From NCBI GenBank assembly GCA_964501965.1, contig CAZCVM010000003.1, positions 1 through 42,806 on the forward strand: 42,806 nucleotides of DNA. Direction: 5' to 3'. The notes under the pieces are model-generated. The model was not told the origin of the DNA, ran no database searches, and worked only from the letters and a program-made list of their open reading frames with translations. The DNA comes from an uncultured Leptospiraceae bacterium (lineage in GTDB: Bacteria; Spirochaetota; DYNZ01). Shown piece by piece: positions 1-27,963 of this stretch (position 1 is the first letter of the stretch; the number at the start of each line of letters is the position of its first letter). The translations under genes were made by a program, and so were the position numbers.

Positions 1-268
1 GTGCGTTTTTTAGCAAATCCGGATATTGAATATTGTGTATTTCATGATTTCCTGAAAAATCAAATTGCTTTTTCAGCTTGGCCAACAAGTGGATGGAATA
101 TCTCAATGATTTACTGGGTATGGTTCCCCTATGCGTACTACTGCCGCCTAAGCGAGGCATTTGTTCAATTAAGGCGACTTTTTTCTGAGCCTTTGCCGCT
201 TGCAGGGCAGCACCTTCTCCGCCCGGGCCGCTCCCAATTACAATAATGTCATACATTTCAGGTTTCAT
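1..268 (-). CDS. sthA: Soluble pyridine nucleotide transhydrogenase (flavoprotein disulfide reductase family), 5' part; runs off the window edge
   Basis: Not in ORF track. Manual translation from ATG at 268: MKPEMYDIIVIGSGPGGEGAALQAAKAQKKVALIEQMPRLGGSSTHRGTIPSKSLR, matching the SthA N-terminus (GSGPGGEGAA FAD loop; GGxxTHxGTIPSK). Starts 7 nt after the asnB stop. Confidence 0.85.
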   Translation of the reverse strand, partial: MKPEMYDIIVIGSGPGGEGAALQAAKAQKKVALIEQMPRLGGSSTHRGTIPSKSLRYSIHLLAKLKKQFDFSGNHEIHNIQYPDLLKNA

Positions 269-275
269 ATTATTC

Positions 276-2231
276 TCAAATAGTTGGTGTCACATCATTG
301 GATACAAACAATCCATGCAAAATTTGTAAACCCAATATATGGTTCAACAAGGCGTCTTTGCGTATCAAAGAAATCGAATCCGTATCTTTTTTGTAGTCTG
401 CCATAAATTGAGCAACTTTCTGTTGATCATATATTCCGGTTTGTTTCAAAGCTTGAGTACTTAAAAAACGATCGGTCAATGAGGCCAAAGCCTGTACTTT
501 TTTTTCATCCGTATGTCCAGGAGGAGCCATAAAAGCAAATTTTTCTCGTTTGTACAATACTTCGGGCAATACTCCTTTGACTGCTTCGCGCAAAATATAC
601 TTTTCTGTATTGCCCTTAATACGCAAAGTATGGGGCACAGTAAAGGCTAGCTGAGCCAGATGATGATCCAAGAAGGGCGGCCTAGATTCCATAGAATTTG
701 CCATATCAACTCTATCCCCGCCCCAATTCAATATCTGTCCTTCGAGCATTGTTTTGATCCAGGTATACTGAACCTGATCCAATGGATGCCTGCCCAGCAA
801 TTTATCTGGCTCAAATTGACCGGCTATGGCTGCAATGGGATCATAATCTGCCAATTCTTGCCGTATATCCGGATGCAATAACTGCCTAGCTTGTTCCAAA
901 GTCAGCATCCAGGTTTGTATCCAAGATGGTGTAAAACCCATTAAGTCATTGAAGGCTGGATGCGATACTTGTTTTTCAGATAAAATAGATCCGGTAAAAA
1001 CTTTGTTTCCTTTGTTCCATAAATCCCGATACTGTTTTCCTTCCGGCGCGTGCAAAAACCAATCTCTTTTAAAAAATGGATACCCGGCAAACAATTCATC
1101 CGAACCCTCTCCAGTAACAACTACCTTAAAGCCAGATTCTTTGACTCGCCTGCTCATGTGCCATTTTGCAACACCTAGAGTATTATAAAAAGTTCTTTCT
1201 GAATGCCATAAAGAACGAATATAATAATCACCGTACAGTTCATTGGCAGACAATTTCAATATTTCTTGGTCCGCGTTCATGGATTGGGCCATTTCTATGG
1301 CTATCTGCGATTCGTCATAATCGCCATGATCAAAACTTATCGTATATGCTTTGACCGGCGACTGCTGTGCTCCGGTCGCTAAACCCAAAATACAACAGCT
1401 ATCAATACCGCCGGAAAGGTAACAACCAACAGGTACATCCGCTTCCAAGCGCAATGTTACAGCTTCAATCAATTCAGCACGAACTTTTTCAATCCATTCT
1501 TGTTCATCAAATGTTTCCGGAAATTGGTCCACAGTTGGGAAAACAGCATCCCAATACTGTCTGTCTTCTATATGCAAATTGTTTCCACGCCTTTCCACAA
1601 TAAGCATGTGTCCCGGACGCAGTGCATGAATATCCTGGAATAATGATGTGCCCGGCACCATAGTCTGCATCAGTTGGTGTATTATTGCCTGATGATTCAT
1701 TTTTTGCGGTACTTGTGGATGCGCCAACAAGGATTTTACTTCAGAGCCATAAAAGAAATCTTTACCATTGTGATAATAGAACAATGGCCGAACCCCAAAA
1801 CGGTCGCGAACTAGTATGAGACGCTGTTTTTTCTTATCAAATAACGAAAACGCAAATTCTCCGCGCAAATGTTTTGTAAATTCTTCCAGTCCCAGCATTT
1901 CATATAAATTGATAATGAGTTCACTATCGGTTTTTGTGGTAAAGTGCTCACCACGACTCATAAGGTCTGCACGTATTCTTTTATAATCATAGATTTCTCC
2001 ATTAGCTGTTAATACAATGGATTTGCTTTTATTGTATAAAGGCTGATCCCCTGTATACAGGTCTATGATTGACAATCGATCATGCCCCATTATTAAACCG
2101 TCATCAATGTCTTCATGGTATCCACGGCTATCAGGACCACGATGATGAATAGCTTCCAACATAGGGTGAATATTTTGTTGGTCGCTATCTTGCAGGGCAT
2201 GATGCAGCCAAAATCCAGTTATGCCACACAT
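276..2231 (-). CDS. asnB: Asparagine synthase (glutamine-hydrolysing)-family amidotransferase
   Basis: N-terminal MCGI (Ntn Cys), HRGPD, RLSIID, NGEIY, RDRFGVRPLF, LSGGIDS ATP loop, TGEGSDELFAGY, MESRPPFLD. True substrate may not be aspartate. Confidence 0.93.
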   Translation of the reverse strand: MCGITGFWLHHALQDSDQQNIHPMLEAIHHRGPDSRGYHEDIDDGLIMGHDRLSIIDLYTGDQPLYNKSKSIVLTANGEIYDYKRIRADLMSRGEHFTTKTDSELIINLYEMLGLEEFTKHLRGEFAFSLFDKKKQRLILVRDRFGVRPLFYYHNGKDFFYGSEVKSLLAHPQVPQKMNHQAIIHQLMQTMVPGTSLFQDIHALRPGHMLIVERRGNNLHIEDRQYWDAVFPTVDQFPETFDEQEWIEKVRAELIEAVTLRLEADVPVGCYLSGGIDSCCILGLATGAQQSPVKAYTISFDHGDYDESQIAIEMAQSMNADQEILKLSANELYGDYYIRSLWHSERTFYNTLGVAKWHMSRRVKESGFKVVVTGEGSDELFAGYPFFKRDWFLHAPEGKQYRDLWNKGNKVFTGSILSEKQVSHPAFNDLMGFTPSWIQTWMLTLEQARQLLHPDIRQELADYDPIAAIAGQFEPDKLLGRHPLDQVQYTWIKTMLEGQILNWGGDRVDMANSMESRPPFLDHHLAQLAFTVPHTLRIKGNTEKYILREAVKGVLPEVLYKREKFAFMAPPGHTDEKKVQALASLTDRFLSTQALKQTGIYDQQKVAQFMADYKKDTDSISLIRKDALLNHILGLQILHGLFVSNDVTPTI

Positions 2232-2270
2232 AAAATACTCCTTTAATTATTAACTTTGCTAAATAAAATA

Positions 2271-3377
2271 TTATTTGATTAGCATTCGGGCAGGTAAAAA
2301 ATCAAACCTATTGAGCATGGAAATCAATAATGCTTGTCGAACATACACAGCCCCATGCGCTTGTGTAAAATACAAATTGTGATCTGTGTTGTCCAATGAA
2401 GTACTCAATTCATCCAATCGGGCAAGCGGATGCATTACTACTGTATTGGGTTTGAGCTGACTATTTTTACTTAATTTAAATCTTTGATCCAAAGACTTGT
2501 AGCTGTCACCTAAATAAGTAATGGAATTCATATAAATAACATCCATATCTTCCAATACTTCCTGAATATCAGATGTGGCATAAAACGGAATACCAGAATC
2601 TTTCACCTTTGCCATTTCTTCATCTCCTAGAGGTTCCGCCATTTCTGAAATAATCGTTATTTTTTTTATTGCTGTTTTAAAGAATAAACTCATAAGTAAA
2701 AAACTTTTCACCGCCCGCATACTTCCCGGCGTGCCAATGATGCCAAGATGAATTTTTCTGTCTTCCGCAATATAGTCATTTTCTAGGTCTGGTCTCCATT
2801 TTAGCAAAGCATACCAATCAGCTAAAGCCTGAGTCGGATGCTCTCCGGTTCCATTGCCGGCATTGATCAGCGGTAAACGCAAATTTTGAAGCATTCGTTG
2901 AGGTGCGTTGGTTTCTGTATGACGCATAATAACTAAATCACCATAAGCATTGAACATTTCACCGATATCCTCTAAAGATTCTCCCTTGGCTACACCGGTT
3001 TGTTTACCATCCGGGATAGAAACAATCTTGCCATCCAAACGCAATACCGCACTTTCAAAAGATAACCTGGTACGTGTACTTGCTTCAAAAAAAGCAGTAA
3101 TAATAATTTTTCCGTCCAAAGGATGACTGGATGCCACTTCTGTCGCCTGCAGCAAAGCAGCAAATTTGCTTATTTCTAAAATCATGGTTTTATCCAATTG
3201 ATTAACGGCTATCAATGATTGCCCAGCTAGTTTGCGCAGCTGTGTAAAGTCAATGCGCTGTTCAGGATTTAACTTGTTGGGATCAGGATTCAATCCATTA
3301 GAATCCATTGGATTTGTCGTATTATCATGGGGACCTGAAATTTTATCCACAAAATCACTCCTTAAATTTTTGGCCAA
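2271..3377 (-). CDS. Aspartate carbamoyltransferase-like transcarbamylase with altered acceptor site
   Basis: FFEASTRTRLSFE, KGESLED, MRH, NAGNGTGEHPTQ and HPLAR are present; the canonical YMTRxQxER is replaced by YMNSITYLG. TTG start uncertain. Confidence 0.9.
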   Translation of the reverse strand: MAKNLRSDFVDKISGPHDNTTNPMDSNGLNPDPNKLNPEQRIDFTQLRKLAGQSLIAVNQLDKTMILEISKFAALLQATEVASSHPLDGKIIITAFFEASTRTRLSFESAVLRLDGKIVSIPDGKQTGVAKGESLEDIGEMFNAYGDLVIMRHTETNAPQRMLQNLRLPLINAGNGTGEHPTQALADWYALLKWRPDLENDYIAEDRKIHLGIIGTPGSMRAVKSFLLMSLFFKTAIKKITIISEMAEPLGDEEMAKVKDSGIPFYATSDIQEVLEDMDVIYMNSITYLGDSYKSLDQRFKLSKNSQLKPNTVVMHPLARLDELSTSLDNTDHNLYFTQAHGAVYVRQALLISMLNRFDFLPARMLIK

Positions 3378-3427
3378 AAAATTTACAATATTTTTTTCCA
3401 GTTTGGCTTATCTTTGCTAAAACAATT

Positions 3428-3553
3428 CTACCAAATTTTTTTCTTAACCAAATCTATAATAAATAGTACCAGTAGGGTAGTCGCTCCCAATGCTGTAAGC
3501 AATAAGCTGGCATAAACAATAAAACTAAAAAATGAATAAGGAAATAACATCAT
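3428..3553 (-). CDS. Small single-pass membrane protein (41 aa)
   Basis: Not in ORF track. Manual translation MMLFPYSFFSFIVYASLLLTALGATTLLVLFIIDLVKKKIW*; GAGG RBS upstream; sits between symporter and transcarbamylase. Confidence 0.75.
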   Translation of the reverse strand: MMLFPYSFFSFIVYASLLLTALGATTLLVLFIIDLVKKKIW

Positions 3554-3571
3554 TGACCTCTATATATCAAC

Positions 3572-4990
3572 TCATTCAGACAATTTATCCCATGAGAAAT
3601 TGTCTGGCTTAATTAAAGTAAAAGATACCACAATGATCATAGATACAATTGTGCCAACAAGAGAGGCCGCATACCACCCGATGACAAAATAAGCAATCAA
3701 ACCAATCACTGTACCGCAAATCAAGGCCCAAAACGCACCATCTGGACTTGCTTGTTTCCAATAAAGACCTATCAGTATGGGAAAAATTGTACTTCCTACC
3801 ATGGGCCCGGCAAAGAATAATACTGAGGCCAAAGTGCCAATACGCGGTAAACAAAAAAGCCAGGTTACCAAACCCAAAGAGATGATAATAATTGCTGTGG
3901 CTTTGCGCAATTGTTGATCTGTGACATCTTTTTTAATCAAACGCTTATAAACATCTTCTGCCAACAAATCAGAAGTAGCAGCCAACAAACTGTCAATACT
4001 CGAAGCTAAAGATGAAAATATCACGATAAAGACCACCACTGCGCCAATTTTTCCTAGAACCGTGGCAGCCAACAAAGGTCCCACCATATCAGGACTCACT
4101 ACATTGACACCAAGTGTGCCACTGGCAAGAGCAATAAATCCGGCTGCGATAGGTATGGGAAACCAAAAAAAAGCTGCCAATGTATATGCTTTTTGCCCGA
4201 CACCAGTATCCATAGCGAACGCTCTGCTCCACCAGACATTACTATGAAAGATTTCTCCTACGCCAAACATTAAGTTGTTGAAAAGAGCAATCAACGCCGC
4301 TGGCAACAAAACCGTAATCAACGCCGGCTGATCCATTTTGAGATTGTTGTAAACCTGGGATATATCAACTTTATCCAATACAGCAAAGCCGACAATAACA
4401 GTGCCAATAAGGATAATAATGCTTTGAATAAAATCTGTTCCAATCACGGCGTACATTCCGCCAAATAACGTATAAAGAACACATACAAGCAAGATCACTG
4501 TCATGCCTATAGCATACGGGATACCTGCTAAAGTATATAACAATATACCTCCTGCCATAGCCATACTAATAAGCCATGTAATACTATAAAAAAAAGAAAT
4601 AAACAAAAAAATCAGCCATACTCTTTTTCCATATCTTTGTAAAATAAAATCACCGCTGGTAATGCCTTTGGGCATGAGAGATTTGATTCTTTTGGCCATA
4701 GGAGCAAACATAAATAAACCAATAGAAGCGGTAGAATATGCCAGCATACCCCATATCCCAAGCTGCAATGCAAATTGGGGTGCAAGCATTGTTGTATTGG
4801 AAGTGACCCAGGTAGCCATCGCTGTCGCACTCCCAAGAGCTAGGCCTACCTTGCGCCCGGCCAACATATAACCATCTAAATTTTTTGCCTTTTTCCCCCA
4901 AAGTACTCCAATAAATACCCATAATGCGCCAAGCACTATAAGTATGATCATACCGAGTGTTTCATCTAATATTGCTGAATGAAATTTCAT
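3572..4990 (-). CDS. Sodium:solute symporter (SSS/SLC5 family, Dur3/PutP-like)
   Basis: About 13 hydrophobic segments; YMLAGR, ATWV, YTLFGGMYAVIGTDFIQ and SSLASSIDSLL are SSS motifs. Confidence 0.92.
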   Translation of the reverse strand: MKFHSAILDETLGMIILIVLGALWVFIGVLWGKKAKNLDGYMLAGRKVGLALGSATAMATWVTSNTTMLAPQFALQLGIWGMLAYSTASIGLFMFAPMAKRIKSLMPKGITSGDFILQRYGKRVWLIFLFISFFYSITWLISMAMAGGILLYTLAGIPYAIGMTVILLVCVLYTLFGGMYAVIGTDFIQSIIILIGTVIVGFAVLDKVDISQVYNNLKMDQPALITVLLPAALIALFNNLMFGVGEIFHSNVWWSRAFAMDTGVGQKAYTLAAFFWFPIPIAAGFIALASGTLGVNVVSPDMVGPLLAATVLGKIGAVVVFIVIFSSLASSIDSLLAATSDLLAEDVYKRLIKKDVTDQQLRKATAIIIISLGLVTWLFCLPRIGTLASVLFFAGPMVGSTIFPILIGLYWKQASPDGAFWALICGTVIGLIAYFVIGWYAASLVGTIVSMIIVVSFTLIKPDNFSWDKLSE

Positions 4991-5004
4991 AATAAAATCT
5001 TTTT

Positions 5005-5030
5005 TTAATAGTTATTGTTAATAGTTATTT
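5005..5030. repeat. 13-bp tandem duplication TTAATAGTTATT(G/T) x2
   Basis: Read directly in the intergenic gap upstream of the symporter. Confidence 0.7.
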
Positions 5031-5072
5031 AAAAGAGAATTGCTTTGTCAAATATATGTATGATTGTTGATT

Positions 5073-5657
5073 TCATGTTGTTAGATCGTTTTTTCTTGAG
5101 CCAATAATCAATAATACAACCAAAACAATGAATAAAAATGCTCCCATAAAAAACAATGTCCAGGTCAGAGCCCAGGAATGATAACTCACTTCGATAGAAT
5201 GAGAATTGGACCAAGATGTTTTATTCTTAGATGAATCTGGATGATATGCACGCACTCGAAAAAAGTGTGTTCCTTCGCTCAATCCTGAAACAAAAGAAGC
5301 TCTATCCGGGCCGCGATAAATTGTTTTGTTATGGGAAAAATCCGGCAAGCTACTTTGCTGCAATATATATTGAATCGGTTGACTATTGGTTGTTTTTTTA
5401 TTTTGTTTGTGGTTCTGGAAAGCTGATTCAGATAGTTTCCATTTGAGCTGTGCGTATCCGGCAGATACTTTTTTTGCTGTATCATGAAAGAATATTTGTT
5501 TTTGGGGATCGCCTGATTCTAAGCTAGACAAAATATCTATACTTACAAAGGCCAAAATCAAAAACAAGGCAACTCTTACTATGTTTTTTGAAAAAAAGAT
5601 GCAAATAACCCTTTGTCTGCACTTTCGTTTATTTAGTTTTTCAAACAATAAAACCAT
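5073..5657 (-). CDS. Membrane-anchored exported protein with a fibronectin type III-like domain
   Basis: N-terminal hydrophobic stretch; FnIII-like pattern LKW...YILQQS...YRGPD...VSGLSEGTHFFRVRA...WSNS; C-terminal TM helix. Start uncertain. Confidence 0.7.
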   Translation of the reverse strand: MVLLFEKLNKRKCRQRVICIFFSKNIVRVALFLILAFVSIDILSSLESGDPQKQIFFHDTAKKVSAGYAQLKWKLSESAFQNHKQNKKTTNSQPIQYILQQSSLPDFSHNKTIYRGPDRASFVSGLSEGTHFFRVRAYHPDSSKNKTSWSNSHSIEVSYHSWALTWTLFFMGAFLFIVLVVLLIIGSRKNDLTT

Positions 5658-5665
5658 TGAATGAC

Positions 5666-5693
5666 ATTATTTCATTTTCGCATAAAATGTCTA
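5666..5693 (-). promoter_or_regulatory. Candidate sigma70-type promoter for the 5657-to-1 operon
   Basis: Minus strand TAGACA-N16-AATAAT with TG just upstream of the -10 box. The AT-rich context makes this weak. Confidence 0.3.
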
Positions 5694-5788
5694 GGACTTT
5701 TTAAAAGTATTATTACTCAAATAGTTGACAATTTTTGACATGATTTTAGTAAATAATAATAGTTTTGTTAAGTATAAATGGCTAATGA

Positions 5789-6223
5789 TTACAATATGCG
5801 GGATAAAAAATCTTCAGGGATTGGCGAGATTTTTTTTTCTTGTATGTCTATAAAAACAATCGTTGTTCGTGCCAGACAAACAAGGCTTTTGGGGATGTTT
5901 TCTTCTAATAAATATAAAGCATAATACATTGCACAGCTAGAACGCGAAACATCGTCCACAGCAATCCTGCACTCCAATGTCTGACCATAAAGAACTTGTT
6001 GCTTGTATTCTATTTGGGCATCTTTAATTAATATCCCGTGGCCGCTGATATCGGTTTCCGAATAATTCATAGATCGCAAATATTGTATCCTTGCTTCGTG
6101 TAGTATCGTTAAAAAAGAATCATTGCCCAGGTGACCACCATAATTGATCAAGCCTATGTGCACGTTCAATTGCGTGGTGAACAAGACTCTTTTTTTAGGA
6201 AAAGATAAAGAATATTTTTTCAT
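5789..6223 (-). CDS. Acyl-CoA thioesterase, hotdog fold (4HBT/YbgC-like)
   Basis: INYGGHLGNDSFLTILHEAR motif; typical length and C-terminal PIPEDF. Confidence 0.85.
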   Translation of the reverse strand: MKKYSLSFPKKRVLFTTQLNVHIGLINYGGHLGNDSFLTILHEARIQYLRSMNYSETDISGHGILIKDAQIEYKQQVLYGQTLECRIAVDDVSRSSCAMYYALYLLEENIPKSLVCLARTTIVFIDIQEKKISPIPEDFLSRIL

Positions 6224-6283
6224 AAAAACCTACAAATGACTACCCTGTTGGATTATTTTTTTTTGGGGACAAAGAAAAAATGC

Positions 6284-6613
6284 TTACCAGGGAACATCTT
6301 CTTCTGATTTGTACAAATTGAAAAAGCTTTTTATTCCAGCCATATCCAATGCCTGCTCCAATTTCAAAGAGACATTGACAAAGGCCATCTCGCGATTGGC
6401 CAAAATCATTTTTTTTTGCAAAGAAACAAACGCGCCAATGCCGGAAGCCTCTATATGCTCCAATGATGCTGTATCTAACACAATATGTTTTTCTGATTCC
6501 GCGATTATTGCGGTAAGCTCTTTTTGAAAATCGTGAATATTGTTCAAATCAATATTTCCGGCAATGGATACCCATTGATATTTTTCTTTAATCTTACTCT
6601 CTATTTTTGTCAT
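6284..6613 (-). CDS. STAS-domain anti-sigma factor antagonist (SpoIIAA/RsbV-like), atypical
   Basis: IAGNIDL...IVLDTASLEHIEASGIGAF. Start moved to the in-frame ATG at 6613, which has an AGGG RBS. Confidence 0.85.
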   Translation of the reverse strand: MTKIESKIKEKYQWVSIAGNIDLNNIHDFQKELTAIIAESEKHIVLDTASLEHIEASGIGAFVSLQKKMILANREMAFVNVSLKLEQALDMAGIKSFFNLYKSEEDVPW

Positions 6614-6767
6614 ATTTTTTACCCTAAATAACATTAAAAAATAAATGGAAGATGTCAACATTTTTTTTTACTTGATACTCTAGCCTATCAATCAAAAAGA
6701 TAAACCATTCAGTCAAGAAAAAATAGACAAAAATAAAAAAAATGAGAAATAGAAAAATAGGACATTT

Positions 6768-7628
6768 ATGCAAACAGAAGATATTATAAGTCATATCCAA
6801 AACACAAAAAATCAAATTGTTGCGCAATTGCGCTCTATAAATTCAAATGAAGAGAATTTTCCGAAATGCGCATTTATCACTATTTGGGACTTTGACGGAA
6901 CCATACTCAAGGGGGATTGTTCCGAAGGCCTTCAGCAACAAGGTAAAACTTTGTATCCGGGTTTTGTAGAATACGCTATAAAAAATGGACTATCCAAAAA
7001 ATTTCAAGGCAAGCAAGGATTTGATCAATTTTGGCAAGAATATAAAAAAATGGAACAACTCAGCCATGAACAAGCTTATATTTTTATGCCGCAAGCTTTT
7101 GCCGGTCAAAAAGTCATGGTTTTAGAAGAGCACGCACGACAACATTTCCAAACCATGAAAGACTATTATTTTGTGGATAGTTTACAAATTTTGCAAAAAT
7201 TGCAATCAGATGACATCTATACCATTGTCATTTCTGCCAGCGCGGATTTTATTGTCCGTGCTGGTTCCAGCACTGTGGGCATACCAGAAAGACATCTTTA
7301 TGGCATTGAAATGGAAACCGAGCTGGAAATGGGTAGCCATATTGTTACAGAAAAACCCATTTTGCCCATCACTTATGGCACAGGCAAAACTCACAAAATG
7401 AACAATATCATCAGTCAAATGCGAAAAGATTATGATCAAATTTTTGTACTAGCTGGCTTTGGCAATAGCTACCACACGGATGGATACTTTCTCAAAGCAA
7501 TATTAGAACAAAAAATACCAAAAGGAAAGCCAATATCCATTATGATTAATGGAGGCACAGCTCCGCAAACTTATGAAAACCAATTTATTGAAATAGAATA
7601 CAAAAAAACTATTGCAGATCAATTGTAA
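6768..7628 (+). CDS. HAD-superfamily hydrolase (subfamily IB-like phosphatase)
   Basis: Motif I WDFDGT, motif II VISAS, motif III Lys in GTGK, motif IV GFGNSYHTD. Confidence 0.85.
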   Translation: MQTEDIISHIQNTKNQIVAQLRSINSNEENFPKCAFITIWDFDGTILKGDCSEGLQQQGKTLYPGFVEYAIKNGLSKKFQGKQGFDQFWQEYKKMEQLSHEQAYIFMPQAFAGQKVMVLEEHARQHFQTMKDYYFVDSLQILQKLQSDDIYTIVISASADFIVRAGSSTVGIPERHLYGIEMETELEMGSHIVTEKPILPITYGTGKTHKMNNIISQMRKDYDQIFVLAGFGNSYHTDGYFLKAILEQKIPKGKPISIMINGGTAPQTYENQFIEIEYKKTIADQL

Positions 7629-7727
7629 TTTTTTCTTGAAAAATATGCAATTGCGCTTTGCTTGCCAGCCCAAAAGCGATAAATTTAATGGTAAAAGAAG
7701 AATTCATAAATACCCAGGGAGAAAAGA

Positions 7728-9623
7728 ATGATAGATGTTCAATTGCCGGATGGAAACAAAATCTCTGTCCAAAATGGAGATTTTGTATCTCAGGTTGCTC
7801 AAAAGATTGGTCCGGGCCTGGCTGAAGCTGCTATAGCTGGAAAAATCAATGGAGCATTGGTGGATTTGAGCCAACCCATCACAGAACCATGTAAGATAGA
7901 GATCATCACAAAAAAAAGTGATGAAGCACTGGAAATATTGCGGCATTCCACAGCACACCTCATGGCGCAAGCAGTAAAACAACTTTATCCGCAAGCACAG
8001 GTAACTATTGGACCAGCAATTGATACAGGCTTTTATTATGATTTTGACACAGAAAACACATTCAATGAAACAGACCTTGCCCAAATAGAAAAGCGCATGA
8101 ATGAGTTGGCAGGGCAAGATATTCCCATTTACAAAGAGGAAATATCCAAACAGGAGGCAATAGACCGTTTTACTCAGATGGGAGAAATGTACAAAGTAGA
8201 AATCATTCAGGAAATTGAAAACCCAAAAGTAAGTATTTATACACAGGGGGATTTCCAGGATTTATGTCGTGGGCCCCATGTACCTTCCACCGGCAAATTG
8301 CAGGCTTTTAAGTTGCTTAGTGTTGCAGGTGCTTATTGGCGTGGCAATGAGAATAATAAAATGCTGCAAAGAATCTATGGCACCGCGTTCGCAGACAAAA
8401 AAACATTGAAACAATATCTCATTCAATTGGAAGAAGCAAAAAAGCGTGATCATAGGAAAATTGGCAAAGAATTGGATTTGTTTAGTTTTCATCCAGAAGC
8501 ACCGGCTATGCCTTTTTTTCATCCTAATGGTGCTTTTATCTACAATTCCCTTATTGGTTTTATTCGTGATCTCAACGAAAAGTATCAATTCCAGGAAGTT
8601 GTTACTCCGCAAATATTGGATGTTTCTTTATGGCACCAATCAGGTCACTACGCGAACTACCAGGAAAATATGTATTTTTCCAAAATTGACAATCGAGAAT
8701 ACGCAGTCAAACCAATGAATTGCCCCACTCATCTCAAAATATTTGGTTCCACATTGCATTCCTATCGTGAATTGCCTGTTCGTTTATCTGATTTTGGTCG
8801 AGTGCACCGCTATGAAAAATCTGGAGCAACAGCCGGATTATTTCGAGTGCGGTCCTTTTCCCAGGATGATGCTCATGTTTTTTGCATGCCCGACCAAATT
8901 ACTGAAGAGATTGCCGGAATTATTGAGATGATTTTTTTTACATACCAAAGCTTTGGTTTTGATACAATCCGGGTTCATCTTTCCACCAAGCCGGAAAAAG
9001 CTATGGGTTCTGACGAAATATGGCAACGCGCGGAAAACGCATTGCATACTGCTTTGCAGCAAGAAAAAATAGAGTACAAAGTCAATCCTGGGGACGGCGC
9101 GTTTTATGGGCCCAAAATAGATTTCAAAGTCCAAGATGCGATTGGCAGAGAATGGCAATTGGGCACCATTCAATTGGATTTTTCCATGCCGGCCCGGTTT
9201 GAACTGACCTATGTGGATTCAGACGGGCAAGAAAAGCCTCCGGTAATGATTCATAGGGCAATTTTGGGTTCAGTGGAACGGTTTATGGGCATTCTTATAG
9301 AGCATTTTGGTGGTAGATTTCCGGTATGGTTAGCTCCGCAACAAGTGCAAGTTATACCAATCTCTCGAGAATTGAATGATTATGCCGTATTTGTGACACA
9401 GGAATTGAAAACAAAAAAAATTCGCGCTATGGTAAATGTATCAGATGATAAAATGAATTACAAAATACGGCAAGCGCAAATGCAGCAGATTCCTTATATG
9501 GTTATCGTCGGCGAGAAAGAACGCGCAGCAAATAAGATATCCATTCGGCAATTAGATGGCAAGCAAATTAACAATATATCTATCAATGAGCTGGCTCAAA
9601 ACATACAAAATGGTAAACAATAG
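7728..9623 (+). CDS. thrS: Threonine--tRNA ligase
   Basis: TGS domain, RHSTAH, DLCRGPH, RDHRKIG, KPMNCP, HRYEKSG, FYGPKID, MIHRAILGSVERF. Confidence 0.99.
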   Translation: MIDVQLPDGNKISVQNGDFVSQVAQKIGPGLAEAAIAGKINGALVDLSQPITEPCKIEIITKKSDEALEILRHSTAHLMAQAVKQLYPQAQVTIGPAIDTGFYYDFDTENTFNETDLAQIEKRMNELAGQDIPIYKEEISKQEAIDRFTQMGEMYKVEIIQEIENPKVSIYTQGDFQDLCRGPHVPSTGKLQAFKLLSVAGAYWRGNENNKMLQRIYGTAFADKKTLKQYLIQLEEAKKRDHRKIGKELDLFSFHPEAPAMPFFHPNGAFIYNSLIGFIRDLNEKYQFQEVVTPQILDVSLWHQSGHYANYQENMYFSKIDNREYAVKPMNCPTHLKIFGSTLHSYRELPVRLSDFGRVHRYEKSGATAGLFRVRSFSQDDAHVFCMPDQITEEIAGIIEMIFFTYQSFGFDTIRVHLSTKPEKAMGSDEIWQRAENALHTALQQEKIEYKVNPGDGAFYGPKIDFKVQDAIGREWQLGTIQLDFSMPARFELTYVDSDGQEKPPVMIHRAILGSVERFMGILIEHFGGRFPVWLAPQQVQVIPISRELNDYAVFVTQELKTKKIRAMVNVSDDKMNYKIRQAQMQQIPYMVIVGEKERAANKISIRQLDGKQINNISINELAQNIQNGKQ

Positions 9624-12855: not shown

Positions 12856-12904
12856 GAAAAAATGAATGACAAATAGGGTAGATTTTTAAAAATTGAGGAA
12901 AAAA

Positions 12905-15900
12905 ATGGCAAACAAGGATACAATCATCCTGGATCAAAAAGACGATCAAGACGAAGAATTGCAAATTGCAGATTCTGATTTCGAAATAGACCCTCTTCCT
13001 GATTTGGACGAAGATGAGTTTATTGTCGAAGAAATGGAAGAGCTGTCTTCATCAGAGGAAAGTGACTCTGCAAACACGGATTCGTACAATCAAAATAACG
13101 ATCTGGACGATGACATTGGGTTTGAAGATGACCTTATTTTAAGTGATGAAGATTTGCTACCGTTCGATTTGATGGATCAAGCAGAATCCAGCCAAGAATC
13201 CTCCAAAACAGATCAAATGCTTACATTTACACCGCATGAAGACTATTTAATTAAAAATCTACCTCACAAAACTAAGTCTGAACCAGAGAGTAGAAAAGAG
13301 CAAGACGAAAAAACAATATTTGAAGATGATGTACTGGTCAGCCAGCCAGACCCAGGGACAGATAAAGATACAAATGAAGAAGAACCATTATTTTTAGAAA
13401 CCCAGGGAGAAGTTGTACCTGAGGAAAAACCAGCAGAAACAAAGGCTGATTCCCTATTTCCAGATTTACCGGAAAATATTCAGTATATTAATGAAGACGA
13501 ATTAATCATTACGGATTCAAACATTACAAACAATTCAACAGAAACGATAGATGCAGAACCAAAAGAAACAAGTCCAAGCAATTTAAGTATTGAAGATGAT
13601 AACAATATGACTATTACAACAGATAGAGAAACAATCGAATCTCAACCAACAATGGACAGCAACGACATATTGGATGATACACCGGATCCAATAGAAGATC
13701 CGGTACCAAATACAACAGAAAATGCTAAAGACAGTAATAAAGATAGTAATATGGAAGATAATCCAATGGAGACACCGGAAAAAAACCAAAACAATGAAAC
13801 CAAAACCGGTTTTTTTGCTAATGCGGACGACGATGACGAAACATTGGCATTATCAGATGAAGAATTGGGCGATATATTGCAAGATGTCACATTGGAAGAA
13901 GATATGAGTGATCAAAGCATACTGAATGATGACATGGAAGATGAAATATCGCAGCAAGAAATATCTCCCGAACCATTTGAGCAAACCGAGCAAACTGAAC
14001 AAATAGAATCAGGTGAAGATGTTTTGACAAATGTCAATGCTGACAACAATTCTGACAACAATGCGAATGATCAAGATATTGATCTCGATAGTATTGCATC
14101 AATGGAAGAAAGCGATAGCAATACCCCTAAGGGCGGTTTTTTTGATGGAGAAGATGATGATGACACCCTTGCCTTATCTGACGAAGAATTGGGCGATATT
14201 TTAGAGGATGTGGTACAAGAAGAAGAAGCCATCGGAGAGTTAAAACCCGCATTGGAACAAATCAATGAGACGAATGAAACTAATGAAGTAGATGCAAATG
14301 ATTTTGACAATGAGCCAGGTGCCCAGGAAGATAATACAACTCTGGATATGGATAGTTTAGACTTGGATTTGGCATCCGAAAACGAAGAAAAAATTGAAAA
14401 TGATGAAAATGATGAAAAAACGACTCTGGATATGGAGTCTTTAGACCTCGATATCAATGAAGACACAGATAACAATGAAATAGACGAAGATGAAACAGAT
14501 AACTTTGCAGAAAATGATGAAAATGATGAAGAAACAACTCTGGATATGGAGTCTTTAGATCTCGATATCGATGAACCAGATATGTCGGAGCCGGAGCTGG
14601 AAGCTGACAACAACGAAGATGATATTGAAGCTGACATTGAGAATGATATTGAGAACGACAATGAAAGCAATCAGGAAGACATCTTTGAAAGTACGATAAA
14701 TACTGGTGAAGAAAATATTGGAACAGATACTCTGGAAAGCAATGAAGACACAGATAACAATGAAATAGACGAAAGTGAAATAGATAACTTTGCAGAAAAT
14801 GATGAAAATGATGAAGAAACAACTCTGGATATGGAGTCTTTAGATCTCGATATCGATGAACCAGATATGTCGGAGCCGGAGCTGGAAGCTGACAACAACG
14901 AAGATGACATTGAGAATGATATTGAAAATGACAATGATAGCAATCAGGAAGACATCTTTGAAAGTACGATAAATACTGGTGAAGAAAATATTGGAACAGA
15001 TACTCTGGAAAGCAATGAAGACACAGATAACAATGAAATAGACGAAAATGAAATAGATAACTTTGCAGAAAATGATGATGATGATATTGCGATCGACATG
15101 GATGCTTTGGATCTGGATTTGGATGACCAGGATATTGAATCAGAAAAAACGGAAAGCGAAGAAAACGAAGAAGATACAACATTAGATATGGATTCCTTGG
15201 ATCTGGAAGATACTGATATATCTGATACACTGGATTCTTCTGATTCGATTGATTCGATTGATTCGATTGAAGAAAACAGTGTTGCCGAGGATAAGGTAAA
15301 TGGCATTACCGATGAGATGGATATAGAAATCGAAGATGATGTAGATATAGACGACATCAATGAACAAAAAGATGATGAACAGATTGTTGACGAAGAGGAT
15401 GAAGACGATATAGTAAAAAATGATCCAATAGATTTTTCTGAAAATGTAGATACAAGTAAAGAATTTGATGAAAATGTAGAAGATTATGGAGATGAATTTG
15501 AATTTGAAGAAGTCATTATTGATGGAGATCAAAAATTATCAAATGAATTTACTTCAGAAAATACCGCCTCTCCAACAGATCCGACTTTTGATATGGAAGA
15601 AAAGGATATCATGATAGATTCGGAGCCGGAACATGAACCAGAATTGGACAAATTTGACGAACAAGAAGGCCTGGAAGATTCTGACTATGATTCTGATTAT
15701 GATGATAAGGTGCTGTTTATCGAAGAAGATATCCAAAATGAAACAACAGTCGACAATGAACCGGGTTTGGACTTAGAAGATGATTTTGAAGAAAGTACTC
15801 TAAACGATGAGATCATAGACGATATTTTGGATGATGTTTCTGGCGACCAAATGCAAGATTTGGATGATGATGTTTCCACACAAATTCCCGAACCAGGCGA

Positions 15901-16237
15901 TGCTGTTACTCCAGCAGAATCAATACCAAATGTATCAAAAGACACACAGCCTAAATCCGCTCATGATATTATTGATCAAGAATTGGAAGCCATGGATGAT
16001 TCATTGAATGATTCACTGAACGATTCACAAAGGACAGCAACAGACCAAGCACCAATGACTGATCACGAAGCTTTGATTGGCAAAGAAAGTATGCCAACAA
16101 AAGAAGAACTGAGAAAAATGTTAAATTATTTGGACGGTCTATTCGAAAATCTACCAGACGATGCTGTCAAACAATTTGCCAAATCAGAGTATTTTGATTT
16201 GTATATGTCTATAATGAAAAAACTAGAAATGGAATAG
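12905..16237 (+). CDS. Very large acidic low-complexity protein with internal repeats and a C-terminal helical domain
   Basis: About 1110 aa, extremely Asp/Glu-rich; C-terminus KEELRKMLNYLDGLFENLPDDAVKQFAKSEYFDLY resembles spirochaete hypothetical proteins (recollection). Start placed at ATG 12905. Confidence 0.85.
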   Translation: MANKDTIILDQKDDQDEELQIADSDFEIDPLPDLDEDEFIVEEMEELSSSEESDSANTDSYNQNNDLDDDIGFEDDLILSDEDLLPFDLMDQAESSQESSKTDQMLTFTPHEDYLIKNLPHKTKSEPESRKEQDEKTIFEDDVLVSQPDPGTDKDTNEEEPLFLETQGEVVPEEKPAETKADSLFPDLPENIQYINEDELIITDSNITNNSTETIDAEPKETSPSNLSIEDDNNMTITTDRETIESQPTMDSNDILDDTPDPIEDPVPNTTENAKDSNKDSNMEDNPMETPEKNQNNETKTGFFANADDDDETLALSDEELGDILQDVTLEEDMSDQSILNDDMEDEISQQEISPEPFEQTEQTEQIESGEDVLTNVNADNNSDNNANDQDIDLDSIASMEESDSNTPKGGFFDGEDDDDTLALSDEELGDILEDVVQEEEAIGELKPALEQINETNETNEVDANDFDNEPGAQEDNTTLDMDSLDLDLASENEEKIENDENDEKTTLDMESLDLDINEDTDNNEIDEDETDNFAENDENDEETTLDMESLDLDIDEPDMSEPELEADNNEDDIEADIENDIENDNESNQEDIFESTINTGEENIGTDTLESNEDTDNNEIDESEIDNFAENDENDEETTLDMESLDLDIDEPDMSEPELEADNNEDDIENDIENDNDSNQEDIFESTINTGEENIGTDTLESNEDTDNNEIDENEIDNFAENDDDDIAIDMDALDLDLDDQDIESEKTESEENEEDTTLDMDSLDLEDTDISDTLDSSDSIDSIDSIEENSVAEDKVNGITDEMDIEIEDDVDIDDINEQKDDEQIVDEEDEDDIVKNDPIDFSENVDTSKEFDENVEDYGDEFEFEEVIIDGDQKLSNEFTSENTASPTDPTFDMEEKDIMIDSEPEHEPELDKFDEQEGLEDSDYDSDYDDKVLFIEEDIQNETTVDNEPGLDLEDDFEESTLNDEIIDDILDDVSGDQMQDLDDDVSTQIPEPGDAVTPAESIPNVSKDTQPKSAHDIIDQELEAMDDSLNDSLNDSQRTATDQAPMTDHEALIGKESMPTKEELRKMLNYLDGLFENLPDDAVKQFAKSEYFDLYMSIMKKLEME
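14456..15080 (+). repeat. Intragenic near-identical tandem repeat, ~2.2 copies (units of 285 and 273 nt)
   Basis: AATGAAGACACAGATAACAATGAAATAGACGAA starts at 14456, 14741 and 15014; units differ by a 12-nt indel and a few substitutions. Confidence 0.92.
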
Positions 16238-17264: not shown

Positions 17265-19751
17265 ATGGCTGAAAAAACAATGAAAAAAATATCAAATATG
17301 GAACTAAATGATATACGTAAAATCCGAATCGGCATAGTTACTAAATTTGTCTTATTTGTTACATTGATTCTTGTCGTAGCTTTTAGTATGACATTTTATT
17401 TTGTCTTGTCCCAGCAAAAACATCAAATCACCGAAAATCTCAAAGAAAAATCATTGGCCATTCTGCAAACTCTTTCTGTGCCAGTCAAAGACCTATTGCA
17501 AAATTTTGCTTCATTCAAAGCTCATGAAGAACAAATCGTCAAAAGCAAAAAATATAGTCCTGGCCTTAGCCAAAAATTTAATGACGCAAAAACAAAGTAC
17601 CGGGAAAGCGAGAATCAGCTAAGAAAGTTTCATACCCAGCTTATGGAAGATATGAACACCAAAGATTTTTATATTAAAAGTACTTTTGGCAAAGTTTTTA
17701 CTTTTGACAAGTATGGCAAAAAAGACGCGGAAGACATTCCAGATACAAATCAAGAAAAAGATTTTCGATTGAAATTCAATCGTGCAATCAATATCCATTT
17801 ACGTCGCCTCAATCCAGGTATCTATTATATGCCATTTTTCTCTTCCAAAAAAGTAAAAGAATATGATAGAATGAGGACTTCTTTGCCATTGTTTGCTACC
17901 ATTCAAACAAAGAATTTTTATCAGGATATTTATGAACTGTTTGTAAAAAAACACAAACCCACTCAACAAGCCATTGTACGGCGTTTATTAAAACAAAAAA
18001 AATGGCAGAGACATTTTGATTTGGATCCAAATAATAAAAATTTTGTTCAAAGGACAGAACAAATTGTAAATAAGGTGCAATTTTCCGAAATTCAAAATAA
18101 ATTGAAAGATAGATACCGGATTGATCTTGTTTATCGCGCTCTGAAAAATAAAGTAAATCAATACATTACCAAAGAAATCAACAAAGATGACAAATGGGAA
18201 GAAAAAATAAAAGATATTGATTATGAATTTTATTACTTTTACAAAGATGCTAAATACGGGCAGGATCTATCAGACAGAAAAAAAGAATGGCAATGGTTCT
18301 TAAAAGAACTTGTTGATATCACTGCATCCAAATTGATAGACAACAGGGAATGGTACAAAGAATATCGCATTAAATATCAATTGTACAGAAAATCAAAACA
18401 AGGCAAAGAAACTAAACCCCAGTCTCCGGCAGAAATAAAAAAGCAATGGCTGCAAGCTTTATTGGCGCACACAAAATATCAAAACAAAATATCCTGGAAG
18501 TATACTAAGGAATTAATTGTTTCACAAATCAATTCTCAAAAAATACCTAAAAATACTACTTATTATACGCAAAAAGATTCCTGGAATTTTTTTGAATTAA
18601 TTCGTGAATATATTTCCCAAAGAAAATATGGGTTTATCAGTACCAAATTGAATTTAGTCAAATTTGCTACGGCTGTAAAAGCAAAAGAACAACTCGGCGT
18701 GATGGTCTTAGTCATAGAGGCAGATGATTACAAAAAAAGGATCGCAGCCACATCCAACTCATTGATAGATATTGCTATTAGCATTATTTTGCGTATTTTA
18801 TTTTTGAGTATTTTATTGGCTGGTTTATTCACAAGAGGCATCAAAATACTCGGCCAGGGTGCTAAAGTGATTGGTGATGGAAATTTTGATTATAAAATTC
18901 AAATAAAATCCTCGGATGAAATTGGTCAGCTAGCAGATACGATCAATCAAATGAGTGCAAATTTGAAAATAGCGCAACTAGAAAAAGAAAAGCAGTTGAT
19001 GTTGGAATCAGAATTGCGCCAGGCGTCTGAAATTCAGCAAACTTTATTGCCGCAGGCTGTTGATATTTCAGGTTTGGAGCATGACGAATACTACAAAGCG
19101 GAAAGCCTTTCTGGTGGTGACTATTATGATTATTTTATGATAAACGAAGACAAAATTGGCTGGGTTATTGGAGACGTGTCTGGCCATGGCGTGGGAGCGG
19201 CATTGGTAATGGCAATGACAAGATCCCTGGTAAGAGAATATACTAAAAAATGGTTGGACCCTCAAAAAGCATTGATTGATGTAAATGAAGTGCTGTGCTC
19301 TGACACCCAGCCCCAGTATTTTGTAACCTTATTTTTGGCTATTTTTGATAAAAAAACCAAAAAAATGCAATGGTCTTCAGCCGGACACAATCCCGTGTAT
19401 TTGCTAGCCCCTGGTCAAAAAGCTGAAGAATTGGCGGCAGGAGGTATGGCATTGGGCTCCTTTTCTGGCGAACGTTTTGCAAAAAAATCCTTACACAATG
19501 AAAGAACATTTCACCCGAATGAGATATTTTTACAATATTCAGATGGTATCACAGAAGCCATGAACCGAAAAGAAGAAGAATATGGTGATGACCGACTTCA
19601 AGCTCTGGTCAACAATTTGACAAAAGCAAAAAATTTGACTCCCCAAAAAATTGTGCAAGCTATTATCCGTGACGTAAATGCATTTACTCAGGGATACCGT
19701 CAGAATGATGATATTACGGTGACTTGTATCCGATACAATGCGACAAGTTAA
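17265..19751 (+). CDS. Membrane-bound PP2C/SpoIIE (RsbU-like) phosphatase with large extracytoplasmic domain and HAMP
   Basis: Two TM segments, HAMP (DEIGQLADTINQM), GGDYYD, GDVSGHG, SAGH, YSDGITEA, DDIT. Confidence 0.93.
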   Translation: MAEKTMKKISNMELNDIRKIRIGIVTKFVLFVTLILVVAFSMTFYFVLSQQKHQITENLKEKSLAILQTLSVPVKDLLQNFASFKAHEEQIVKSKKYSPGLSQKFNDAKTKYRESENQLRKFHTQLMEDMNTKDFYIKSTFGKVFTFDKYGKKDAEDIPDTNQEKDFRLKFNRAINIHLRRLNPGIYYMPFFSSKKVKEYDRMRTSLPLFATIQTKNFYQDIYELFVKKHKPTQQAIVRRLLKQKKWQRHFDLDPNNKNFVQRTEQIVNKVQFSEIQNKLKDRYRIDLVYRALKNKVNQYITKEINKDDKWEEKIKDIDYEFYYFYKDAKYGQDLSDRKKEWQWFLKELVDITASKLIDNREWYKEYRIKYQLYRKSKQGKETKPQSPAEIKKQWLQALLAHTKYQNKISWKYTKELIVSQINSQKIPKNTTYYTQKDSWNFFELIREYISQRKYGFISTKLNLVKFATAVKAKEQLGVMVLVIEADDYKKRIAATSNSLIDIAISIILRILFLSILLAGLFTRGIKILGQGAKVIGDGNFDYKIQIKSSDEIGQLADTINQMSANLKIAQLEKEKQLMLESELRQASEIQQTLLPQAVDISGLEHDEYYKAESLSGGDYYDYFMINEDKIGWVIGDVSGHGVGAALVMAMTRSLVREYTKKWLDPQKALIDVNEVLCSDTQPQYFVTLFLAIFDKKTKKMQWSSAGHNPVYLLAPGQKAEELAAGGMALGSFSGERFAKKSLHNERTFHPNEIFLQYSDGITEAMNRKEEEYGDDRLQALVNNLTKAKNLTPQKIVQAIIRDVNAFTQGYRQNDDITVTCIRYNATS

Positions 19752-26769: not shown

Positions 26770-27963
26770 ATGGCAAATGAGAATATGGAAAATTCAGAAC
26801 CAGGTCTAGAACCAGCAGAAAAGAATCGTCATACTTCATACAAAAAAACACAAGATATGGAAACGATTATTCGGGTCATTAATGAGAAGTTTTTGAAAAA
26901 GAAATTGACTATACAATTGGCTACTTTGAGCCCTAAATACGCTCATATTATTTCTTTTGATGATACCGGTATGATTATTCAATTTGACAATTTTGTTCCG
27001 CCTGTGGGGGGGCTTTTGCTTTCCGGTTTTATCAATGATTTTTATACAGAGCTTGGGATTGAGGTAATAAACAATAAAGAGGGCAATCTTTTTTTGTGTA
27101 AGCCCAAATTGCTTCGTATTGCGTCGCAAAAACGTATGGATGAAAGATTTGTGATTGATAATGCTGATCTTATTTATGTCAACAAAATACGTATTGCCAA
27201 AGCGGATTTGGATTTCTCTGGTAAAAATCTTCCAGTATCATACAAAATTCTCTTGCAGCAGTTTCAGCAGGAAAATCATGATTTGGGAGATAAAGTGCAA
27301 ATTGCAAGTTTTGGCGATGTCAAAGAAGATATTTATAATAAGGTATTTAAGACCGGCAAAACATTTTATATAAGCAATATTGATGATAATGAAAATTATC
27401 AGCAAAATCTTGATAATGATGAATTTCTTTCATTGGAGGAAGCTGGAAGCAATTGGGAAAAAATGAGCAAAGAATTAAGCAATCACAATCGTAAAGGTTG
27501 GCTTATTTCGCCCATTCTTACAGATAACGCAGACGGAGCCTGGATACCTTTAGGTTTTGTAGAAATTGTGAACAATACGCCGATTACAACCGATACGCTG
27601 ATGACCATAAAAGCTTTGTCTTTTAAAATTTTGGATAAAATAAAATCCATGAACTTGATGGAAGTCAAAGAAAGACAAAAAGTAATTGATGTTTCCCGTA
27701 CAGGAATACGTTTGGAAGTAGAAAATCAAAAGTTGATTGATGCTATTTTACGGCGCAGAGAAATGATATTTGATATTATTATGAAAATGCAAGCACCTAT
27801 TACCATACAGGGATGGATACGGGCTACAAAAATATTGGACAATGGCAAATTGCATGTTGGCTTAAAAATTCAGGGAGAAAACAACAGACAAAATCAAATG
27901 AAAAGATATATTCATTTTATTAATGAATTATCCCAAAAAGCCAGACAAACCGGCAAAGATTGA
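26770..27963 (+). CDS. DUF1577-like protein with split PilZ-type motifs
   Basis: RMDERF (RxxxR) and DVSRTG (DxSxxG) flank a GAF-like insert; architecture recalled from Leptospira DUF1577 proteins. Confidence 0.7.
   Translation: MANENMENSEPGLEPAEKNRHTSYKKTQDMETIIRVINEKFLKKKLTIQLATLSPKYAHIISFDDTGMIIQFDNFVPPVGGLLLSGFINDFYTELGIEVINNKEGNLFLCKPKLLRIASQKRMDERFVIDNADLIYVNKIRIAKADLDFSGKNLPVSYKILLQQFQQENHDLGDKVQIASFGDVKEDIYNKVFKTGKTFYISNIDDNENYQQNLDNDEFLSLEEAGSNWEKMSKELSNHNRKGWLISPILTDNADGAWIPLGFVEIVNNTPITTDTLMTIKALSFKILDKIKSMNLMEVKERQKVIDVSRTGIRLEVENQKLIDAILRRREMIFDIIMKMQAPITIQGWIRATKILDNGKLHVGLKIQGENNRQNQMKRYIHFINELSQKARQTGKD

Follow-up and report, generated by a model that had tools for sequence, protein, structure and literature searches.

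A conserved five-gene cassette joining a divergent transcarbamylase and an AsnB-type amidotransferase to a Na+/solute symporter: a candidate operon for N-carbamoyl amino-acid amides

Introduction

What would a transcarbamylase and an AsnB-type amidotransferase make together, and why would a Na+/solute symporter be encoded with them? The question is raised by five genes, here called the cassette, at positions 276-5657 of a contig from an uncultured Leptospiraceae bacterium (CAZCVM010000003.1, GenBank assembly GCA_964501965.1); the window is the whole stretch analysed, 42,806 nucleotides (nt) long. An earlier note on this DNA had proposed an operon for an N-carbamoyl amino-acid amide, possibly the osmolyte N-carbamoyl-glutamine amide, with the symporter importing or recycling it. 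We favor the possibility, to which we assign a probability of about one half, that a neutral N-carbamoyl amino-acid amide is the joint product of the two enzymes and that either its precursor or the product itself is taken up; as an interpretation of the cassette this has support in its general lines, while its specifics are unproven. A literature search, supplementary files lying outside its scope, returned no paper on this gene set and no published pathway that explains it.

Results

Composition and conservation of the cassette

The five genes lie on the minus strand and are given here from the first to the last of the operon:

5073-5657, minus strand: bitopic membrane protein of 194 amino acids (aa) with a fibronectin type III (Fn3) fold, recognised from an AlphaFold model and Foldseek; a family of 73 loci plus the window
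3572-4990, minus strand: Na+:solute symporter (SSS) permease, 472 aa, PF00474
3428-3553, minus strand: membrane peptide of 41 aa with one hydrophobic helix; a homologous peptide stands at the same place in other loci
2271-3350, minus strand: transcarbamylase of the aspartate transcarbamylase (ATCase) branch that, by its motifs, is not an ATCase; PF02729 and PF00185
276-2231, minus strand: AsnB-family glutamine-dependent amidotransferase, 651 aa, with GATase_7 and Asn_synthase domains

The gaps between them are, in the same order, 82, 18, 77 and 39 nt. Every part described in the earlier note was right, the FnIII-like fold included.

Relatives were sought on contigs, with one genome per species. 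This gave 384 pattern matches, 364 of which encode a relative of the transcarbamylase, and our locus statistics refer to the best 80 of these 364, against which the window proteins were searched by tblastn. The transcarbamylase and the AsnB-like gene (partial at contig ends) are present in all 80 loci, the symporter in 79 and the Fn3 protein in 74, and all seven misses of the latter two fall at contig ends. Wherever the DNA reaches, the order Fn3 protein, permease, peptide, transcarbamylase, AsnB-like enzyme on one strand is invariant. Of 77 loci, 75 encode a peptide of ~40 aa with the C-terminus ..D.K..K.W between symporter and transcarbamylase; the remaining two were missed through artefacts of open reading frame (ORF) boundaries, and on this ground we regard the 41-aa peptide as a real gene. 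The thioesterase, STAS and HAD genes that lie upstream of the cassette in the window occur in 0 of the 80 loci. The cassette is not a chance neighbourhood, and the synteny that the earlier note had proposed to look for across genomes is strongly conserved.

The 80 loci span Bacteroidota, Verrucomicrobiota, Calditrichota, Ignavibacteriales, GN15, Nitrospira, Planctomycetaceae, Acidobacteriota, Polyangiaceae and Vampirovibrionales. Their transcarbamylases are 60-71% identical to that of the window, their AsnB-like enzymes 48-62%. The best 120 transcarbamylase matches listed, headed by the window's own protein, have 65-100% identity, and their named sources are Bacteroidota, Calditrichaeota, GN15 and a metagenome-assembled genome (MAG) of Leptospiraceae. 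The transcarbamylase was found in none of 40 sampled relatives of this genome and in none of 150 other sampled genomes from the order of one carrier; given this last result it was too rare for a phylogenetic co-occurrence profile, which was dropped. A unit that is rare and patchy, yet with a transcarbamylase 60-70% identical across phyla, fits horizontal spread under strong constraint. Plasmid carriage was considered and rejected, the single record matched being a 34% identical ATCase on a chromosome-sized 'plasmid' record. Among 1.84 billion cluster representatives searched, the transcarbamylase family is reduced to a single full-length representative (58% identical); HPLAR and the short loop described below recur in a few sister lineages at 42-49%, and ordinary ATCases come next, at no more than 36%. 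Longer proteins, as expected of fused forms, were absent at E <= 1e-60, a result that carries little weight.

A transcarbamylase that has lost the aspartate-binding motif

The transcarbamylase ORF extends from a TTG over 2271-3377, but translation probably begins at the GTG at 3350, which follows AGGAG by 7 nt. It matches PF02729 (OTCace_N, 118.7 bits) and PF00185 (OTCace, 49 bits), and its best solved match is Arabidopsis PYRB (6yw9, E 2e-42), so that it resembles the PyrB catalytic chain in having the two-domain OTCace fold of the ATCase branch rather than of the OTCase branch. The carbamoyl-phosphate motifs of the superfamily are SxRT, HPxQ and HxLP [PMC4581275]. Accordingly placed within the superfamily are proteins such as this one, in which STRTR and HPTQ are invariant and HPLA is a variant of HxLP. 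FFEASTRTR (FxExSTRTR in the pattern shared with PyrB), KGES, RH, HPTQ and the equivalent of R167 are kept, and the carbamoyl-phosphate motifs, the equivalents of K84 and R167, and Q137 are invariant in the family.

The changes lie elsewhere. YMNSI(A/T)(F/Y)LGDSY replaces RxQxxER in 22 of 22 aligned family members, whereas the genome's own pyrB reads LRVQFER; R229 has become N and Q231 has become I, so that the binders of the aspartate side chain are lost, a result in favor of the earlier note's proposal. HPLA stands where ATCase has HPLP, and the 240s loop is ~13 residues shorter than in this genome's pyrB. It is this loop that determines second-substrate specificity in transcarbamylases, and RxQxxER defines ATCase, DxxxSMG OTCase and H(T/S)LP UGTCase [PMC4581275]. 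A conserved N-terminal extension of ~45 residues (window 3216-3350, minus strand; GL-x-PDP-xx-L ... L-x-G-Q-S), absent from the genome's pyrB, could serve in docking to the AsnB-like enzyme or the transporter.

The equivalog models agree with the motifs. The cassette enzyme falls below the cut-offs of both ATCase models (TIGR00670, 178.5 vs 236.95; NF002032, 175.5 vs 263); it has neither the DxxxSMG nor the HCLP of OTCase (TIGR00658, 81.8 vs 280.85), and it has HPLA instead of the H(T/S)LP of UGTCase. Identity as UGTCase, OTCase, DPTCase or DBTCase was rejected because the defining motifs are absent. Judged by motifs and scores, then, the enzyme is inside a known superfamily yet outside every defined member family, and is probably catalytically competent with a changed specificity.

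There is no shortage of more ordinary transcarbamylases in the same genome. At 74% completeness, it has three OTCace_N genes: the cassette gene, an OTCase on contig C48 and, on C292, a pyrB that passes both ATCase models (TIGR00670, 300.8; NF002032, 377.3) and has dihydroorotase (pyrC) next to it. The proposal would have been undermined had the cassette gene been the only pyrB, as the earlier note pointed out; instead it is 29% identical to a separate one. Five other carrier genomes have 3 OTCace_N matches and 3-9 Asn_synthase matches each, so the cassette enzymes are extra paralogues there as well. The cassette transcarbamylase thus differs from PyrB in its motifs, loop, extension and scores, in being unlinked to pyr genes and in always being an extra paralogue.

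Some further observations concern transcarbamylase genes in general. Short masked stretches of N break the OTCase gene (L001, C48) and the 3' end of pyrB (L002, C292), and for this reason the OTCase reads as two pieces. The ESM Atlas gave generic carbamoyltransferase clusters only, some of them commonest in Pseudomonadota or Myxococcota and with no alignment, and serves as a lead only. A separate ATCase-like group of ~357 aa (P0138, P0142, P0144, P0148 and P0155; 27-33% identical) has degenerate motifs, with ENP for HPTQ, no KGES, and HPE or HPQ for HPLA, and may consist of pseudo-enzymes or have a different chemistry.

An AsnB-type amidotransferase of no named subfamily

The AsnB-like protein begins with MCGI, has an SGGIDS PP-loop and matches PF00733 (Asn_synthase, 275 bits) and GATase_7; of the 75 members of its family, 71 begin with MCG and all have SGGxDS. 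Since the N-terminal Cys and the PP-loop are conserved, it is a glutamine-dependent amidotransferase and not a cyclase, and a cyclisation of the kind catalysed by beta-lactam synthetase, which we considered for this AsnB homologue, was rejected on the conservation of that Cys and of the glutaminase residues. The protein passes the broad model TIGR01536 (433.4 vs 267.1) but neither that of asparagine synthetase B proper (NF006949, 273 vs 499) nor that of the amidotransferase for N-acetylglutaminylglutamine amide (NAGGN; TIGR03104, 285.9 vs 570.1), to which it is no closer than to other AsnB subfamilies. Among solved structures a hydroxyamidotransferase (7ylz) is the best match, and no other full-length Asn_synthase match was found in this 74%-complete genome.

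A symporter with two putative single-pass partners

The permease is an SSS protein (PF00474, SSF, 103.8 bits vs a cut-off of 22.8) with 51-69% identity across 30 loci, and it falls far under the subfamily cut-offs of PutP (94.5 vs 515.5) and PanF (94 vs 328), so that it is assigned to no subfamily. The Fn3 protein has no credible Pfam match, relaxed threshold included, and Pfam gave no match for the 41-aa peptide either. Its AlphaFold model, built on a 31-sequence alignment (mean pLDDT 84.9), shows a seven-strand beta-sandwich flanked by one helix at the N-terminus and one at the C-terminus, and among the 37 Foldseek matches to the PDB at E <= 0.001 the best are Fn3 domains (2db8, E 2.5e-5, TMt 0.66). 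The predicted topology is a signal or anchor helix, an extracytoplasmic Fn3 domain and a C-terminal transmembrane (TM) helix.

When residues 50-194 of the Fn3 protein were folded with the permease, ipSAE was 0.78, against 0.00 for the best of 3 controls; as a benchmark, this value is reached by 58 of 80 solved complexes and by 2 of 110 mismatched pairs, counts that are rough because custom alignments were used. The runs agree in at least 91% of contacts, with partner pLDDT of at least 78, and the contacts run along the C-terminal TM helix of the Fn3 protein and between the Fn3 domain and the outer loops. The Fn3 protein is thereby predicted to dock on the symporter as an accessory subunit, which the modelling supports and does not prove; the score could pass in part because of likeness to solved complexes of permeases with single-pass proteins.

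There is precedent for SSS permeases with small single-pass partners in SGLT2-MAP17, PanF-YhdT and ActP-YjcH. The cassette resembles these in pairing a permease with small bitopic proteins and in having predicted contacts along the TM helix of the partner, and it differs from them in having two partners, one with an extracytoplasmic Fn3 domain. We know of no Fn3-domain subunit of an SSS permease.

Carbamoyl phosphate

A carB fragment is present in this genome, in which, at 74% completeness, no carbamate kinase over the cut-off was found. Of 5 other carriers, 3 have such a kinase, in each case at a great distance from the cassette, and in the other 2 none was found. These distributions favor consumption of carbamoyl phosphate by the cassette. 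The matches to PF00696 in our searches are generic amino-acid kinases.

Linked hydrolases and other recurring neighbours

When the flanking ORFs of the 80 loci were clustered, only four further families recurred. A MarR-type regulator stands upstream of the cassette in 28 loci, and in 9 loci a small ORF of 121-150 aa lies between the MarR and Fn3 genes (e.g. L012:5540-5905), with no match in Pfam (relaxed search too) or NCBIfam. The other two families are hydrolases, namely an M20 amidase of the hydantoinase/carbamoylase family in 23 of the 80 loci and an isochorismatase-family hydrolase in 20 (both by tblastn). Most of the linked hydrolase genes lie directly 3' of the AsnB-like gene and on the same strand.

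The linked M20 protein passes NF006771 (523.7 vs 399) and TIGR01879; among characterised equivalogs it scores best with the N-carbamyl-L-glutamate amidohydrolase ErtE, below the cut-off (365.1 vs 520). The isochorismatase-like cysteine hydrolase is nearest to the biuret hydrolase BiuH (74.9 vs 370) and to RutB, enzymes acting on ureido amides. Both hydrolases are below all characterised equivalog cut-offs.

In the present genome, an M20 and isochorismatase-like pair (56% and 60% identical) lies on another contig, C49, and neither enzyme was found in the 40 sampled relatives, which also lack the cassette. On C49 the pair belongs to an operon-like trio headed by a symporter of the Na+:alanine family (L089:3027-6742, plus strand), so the hydrolases have a transporter of their own in this genome; that symporter occurs in none of the 80 cassette loci.

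Two other observations touch on these families. A protein of ~965 aa, one half of which is a divergent M20 carbamoylase-like domain, lies inside or beside the cassette in 4 loci:

L009:9068-11965: M20 fusion of ~965 aa
L014:5027-7960, minus strand: M20 fusion of ~965 aa
L027:9957-12080: M20 fusion of ~965 aa
L028:11324-14221: M20 fusion of ~965 aa

Its N-terminal half (~380 residues) belongs to no recognisable family, with nothing credible in a relaxed Pfam search. In the Nitrospira carrier, two weak isochorismatase-like matches (35-36%) occur within ~6 kb of a carbamate kinase (G002:C1:589611-596557); this stretch is far from the cassette and may be another ureide-related cluster.

Surroundings of the cassette in the window

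Two further features flank the five genes:

5658-5788, minus strand: intergenic region 5' of the Fn3 gene, a candidate promoter region with two sigma-70-like sites
2-268, minus strand: start of an sthA-like (Si-specific transhydrogenase) flavoprotein gene, NF003585, 92.9 bits on 89 aa

The sigma-70-like sites are at 5771-5743 and 5693-5666 and have 10 of 12 matches each; the promoter and terminator scan as a whole gave no more sites than shuffled sequence (26 found vs 24.1 expected in the scanned region). The sthA-like gene begins 7 nt past the AsnB-like stop, running from 268 down to 2, where the contig end truncates it, and is possibly co-transcribed with the cassette in this genome. As a clue to the ligand, riboswitches and leader RNAs were sought in window 1-8000, where Rfam gave nothing at E <= 1; a search of 8 of the 80 loci yielded just a tmRNA and a SAM riboswitch, neither of them within the cassette.

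Among the window ORFs of at least 180 aa that were scanned there is no pyr gene, arg gene or carbamate kinase, as the earlier note had observed for the neighbourhood. The remaining ORFs of this size include thrS, an aldo-keto reductase, partner-switching proteins, a methyl-accepting chemotaxis protein and transport genes. Two STAS-domain proteins, a HAMP-SpoIIE phosphatase and a DUF1577 protein are encoded at 6284-6661 (minus strand), 17265-19751, 28012-28803 and 26770-27963 (all plus strand), the STAS and HAMP-SpoIIE proteins pointing to partner-switching signalling. DUF1577 is a family that we take to be typical of Leptospira, in agreement with the closest named transcarbamylase match, from the Leptospiraceae MAG. 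An ORF of 1114 aa with no Pfam match (12893-16237, plus strand) lies in a stretch of marked GC skew (+0.25). Among sequencing runs holding this DNA no RNA run was listed; the DNA runs were 3 of a single study, which may be the source sample, and no habitat was deduced from them.

Discussion

In the model that we favor, the operon would be a self-contained and horizontally spread unit of two halves, a Na+/solute uptake unit and a pair of cytoplasmic enzymes. The uptake unit would be built of three parts, the SSS permease, the single-pass Fn3 subunit and the single-pass 41-aa peptide. The transcarbamylase would transfer the carbamoyl group of carbamoyl phosphate, supplied by CarAB, to the alpha-amino group of a small amino acid whose alpha-carboxylate is still there and whose side chain is uncharged. 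Using ATP and glutamine, the AsnB-type enzyme would then turn the free carboxyl group of the carbamoylated compound into a carboxamide, giving a neutral, doubly capped N-carbamoyl amino-acid amide, and the transporter would either import the precursor or recapture the finished compound. Where present, the M20 carbamoylase and the isochorismatase-like cysteine hydrolase would strip both caps, for turnover or re-use. The analysis establishes the genes and their fixed order, the altered motifs, the status of the enzymes as extra paralogues, the linkage to the two hydrolases and a predicted interface of permease and Fn3 protein; what each enzyme does and in which sequence, on what substrate, in the direction of synthesis and to what end in the cell, we infer. 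The linked carbamoylase and amide hydrolase are just the activities needed to reverse the caps proposed, and their linkage to the cassette is independent support for a carbamoyl and amide chemistry. In this respect the general logic of the earlier note, a carbamoyl cap plus an amide cap, has gained ground, while the product that it named, the osmolyte role and the role that it gave to the symporter are unsupported.

Several of our observations weigh against this model. (i) The retained equivalent of R167 is the sole basis for assuming that the substrate has an alpha-carboxylate. (ii) Every locus links the transporter to the enzymes and places it at the head of the operon, an arrangement commoner in modules that import and convert a compound than in solute biosynthesis. 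(iii) The M20 gene sits between symporter and transcarbamylase in L050 and L059, and in several loci hydrolase genes overlap the stop codon of the AsnB-like gene; enzymes that make and remove the same caps would then be co-expressed, which suits a linear pathway better than synthesis plus breakdown. (iv) In five carriers that lack linked hydrolases, an M20 relative was found in 1 (49%) and the best isochorismatase-like match never exceeded 36%, so the hydrolases are optional. (v) The co-occurrence of cassette and hydrolases in the present genome is a single event in a binned genome that is 74% complete.

The main rival takes up points (ii) and (iii): the symporter complex would take up an external compound, which the enzymes would process along a linear route. 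In one form of this idea the carbamoyl group would be a transient protecting group, later taken off by the M20 enzyme; in another, the transcarbamylase would phosphorolyse an imported ureido compound to yield carbamoyl phosphate. The invariable linkage and leading position of the transporter genes, the co-oriented and sometimes overlapping hydrolase genes, and the MarR-type regulators, which are common for substrate-responsive operons, all suit such a module, as does the carbamate kinase of three carriers. There is also precedent for catabolic transcarbamylases in PTCase, catabolic OTCase and UGTCase [PMC4581275]. However, it is hard to see what a catabolic route would do with an amidotransferase that consumes ATP and glutamine, carbamate kinase nowhere adjoins the cassette and was not found in two of the five carriers or, over the cut-off, in this genome, and most carriers examined have no hydrolases, so that the core must function without them. 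On balance we consider import and conversion possible, if somewhat unlikely.

The specific form of our favored chemistry proposed in the earlier note is that glutamine is carbamoylated and its alpha-carboxyl group then amidated, the resulting N-carbamoyl-glutamine amide serving as a compatible solute that the symporter recaptures. This compound is an established osmolyte of Ectothiorhodospira marismortui [PMC1224877], and no genes are assigned to it in the accessible portion of a 2020 genome survey [PMC7824335] or in the further literature searched. The loss of R229 and Q231 suits the uncharged side chain of glutamine, and the nearest characterised relative of the linked M20 protein, ErtE, acts on N-carbamyl-L-glutamate. 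Some of the carriers, such as Reichenbachiella, Flexithrix, Rapidithrix and Oceaniferula, are marine, but others, such as Chitinophaga (C. japonensis), Sphingobacterium and Anseongella, are non-marine, from soil or animals; the carriers are not obviously halophiles, and no Gammaproteobacteria are among the best 80 of the 364 relatives. Furthermore, Asn, Ser, Ala, Gly and other neutral amino acids suit the sequence evidence equally, nothing singles out glutamine, and the AsnB-like protein shows no particular closeness to the NAGGN amidotransferase. We therefore find the glutamine amide and its osmolyte role improbable.

That the cassette is plain housekeeping, an aspartate transcarbamylase and an asparagine synthetase that happen to lie beside a transporter, is practically excluded: databases do name the first enzyme 'aspartate carbamoyltransferase', and the second passes the broad TIGR01536 model and had no full-length rival in this 74%-complete genome, but RxQxxER is absent, TIGR00670 is not reached, a separate and distant pyrB lies beside pyrC, and a five-gene order that is invariant across phyla, with a transcarbamylase found in none of 40 sampled relatives and none of 150 other sampled genomes from one carrier's order, is unlike a housekeeping distribution.

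How does the favored model, synthesis of a neutral N-carbamoyl amino-acid amide, compare with known systems? With the NAGGN system (the asnO-ngg 'trio', TIGR03104) it would share an AsnB-family enzyme that forms a neutral solute by amidating the carboxyl group of a glutamine-type compound with an N-terminal cap. The cassette differs in having no GNAT/ligase (Ngg) partner, in a cap that would be a carbamoyl group from a transcarbamylase, and in a dedicated transporter that is always attached; given the TIGR03104 score, the parallel drawn in the earlier note is an analogy only. The NAGGN operon, too, carries a co-transcribed hydrolase. A further comparison is with UGTCase and other non-canonical transcarbamylases, which are ATCase-branch enzymes that databases name ATCase, that use another amine substrate and whose specificity lies in the 240s loop and the HxLP motif [PMC4581275]. 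UGTCase itself has H(T/S)LP and lies in purine-degradation clusters, whereas the cassette family has HPLA and another context, and DPTCase and DBTCase, with HDLP, belong to the OTCase branch, unlike the cassette enzyme [PMC4581275].

New second substrates are seldom found among transcarbamylases, and every such enzyme discovered to date has led to a pathway. The present family is misnamed 'aspartate carbamoyltransferase' in databases and has 364 relatives at one genome per species. Solving its function would correct annotations, and the cassette, as a compact and well-defined five-gene unit, is easy to express. A solution would define a new sink for carbamoyl phosphate and show, for the first time, an Fn3-domain subunit in an SSS permease; it might also fill in the genes still missing for a known compatible solute. 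More tentatively, and as something that we hold to be unlikely though worth stating in full, the cassette may be the unassigned genetic basis for N-carbamoyl amino-acid amides, the glutamine amide or a relative of it: a new 'neutral amino acid' transcarbamylase together with a new type of three-subunit SSS/Fn3 transporter, spread by gene transfer across Bacteroidota, Verrucomicrobiota, Calditrichota and other phyla, whose product would be a neutral solute or a nitrogen store.

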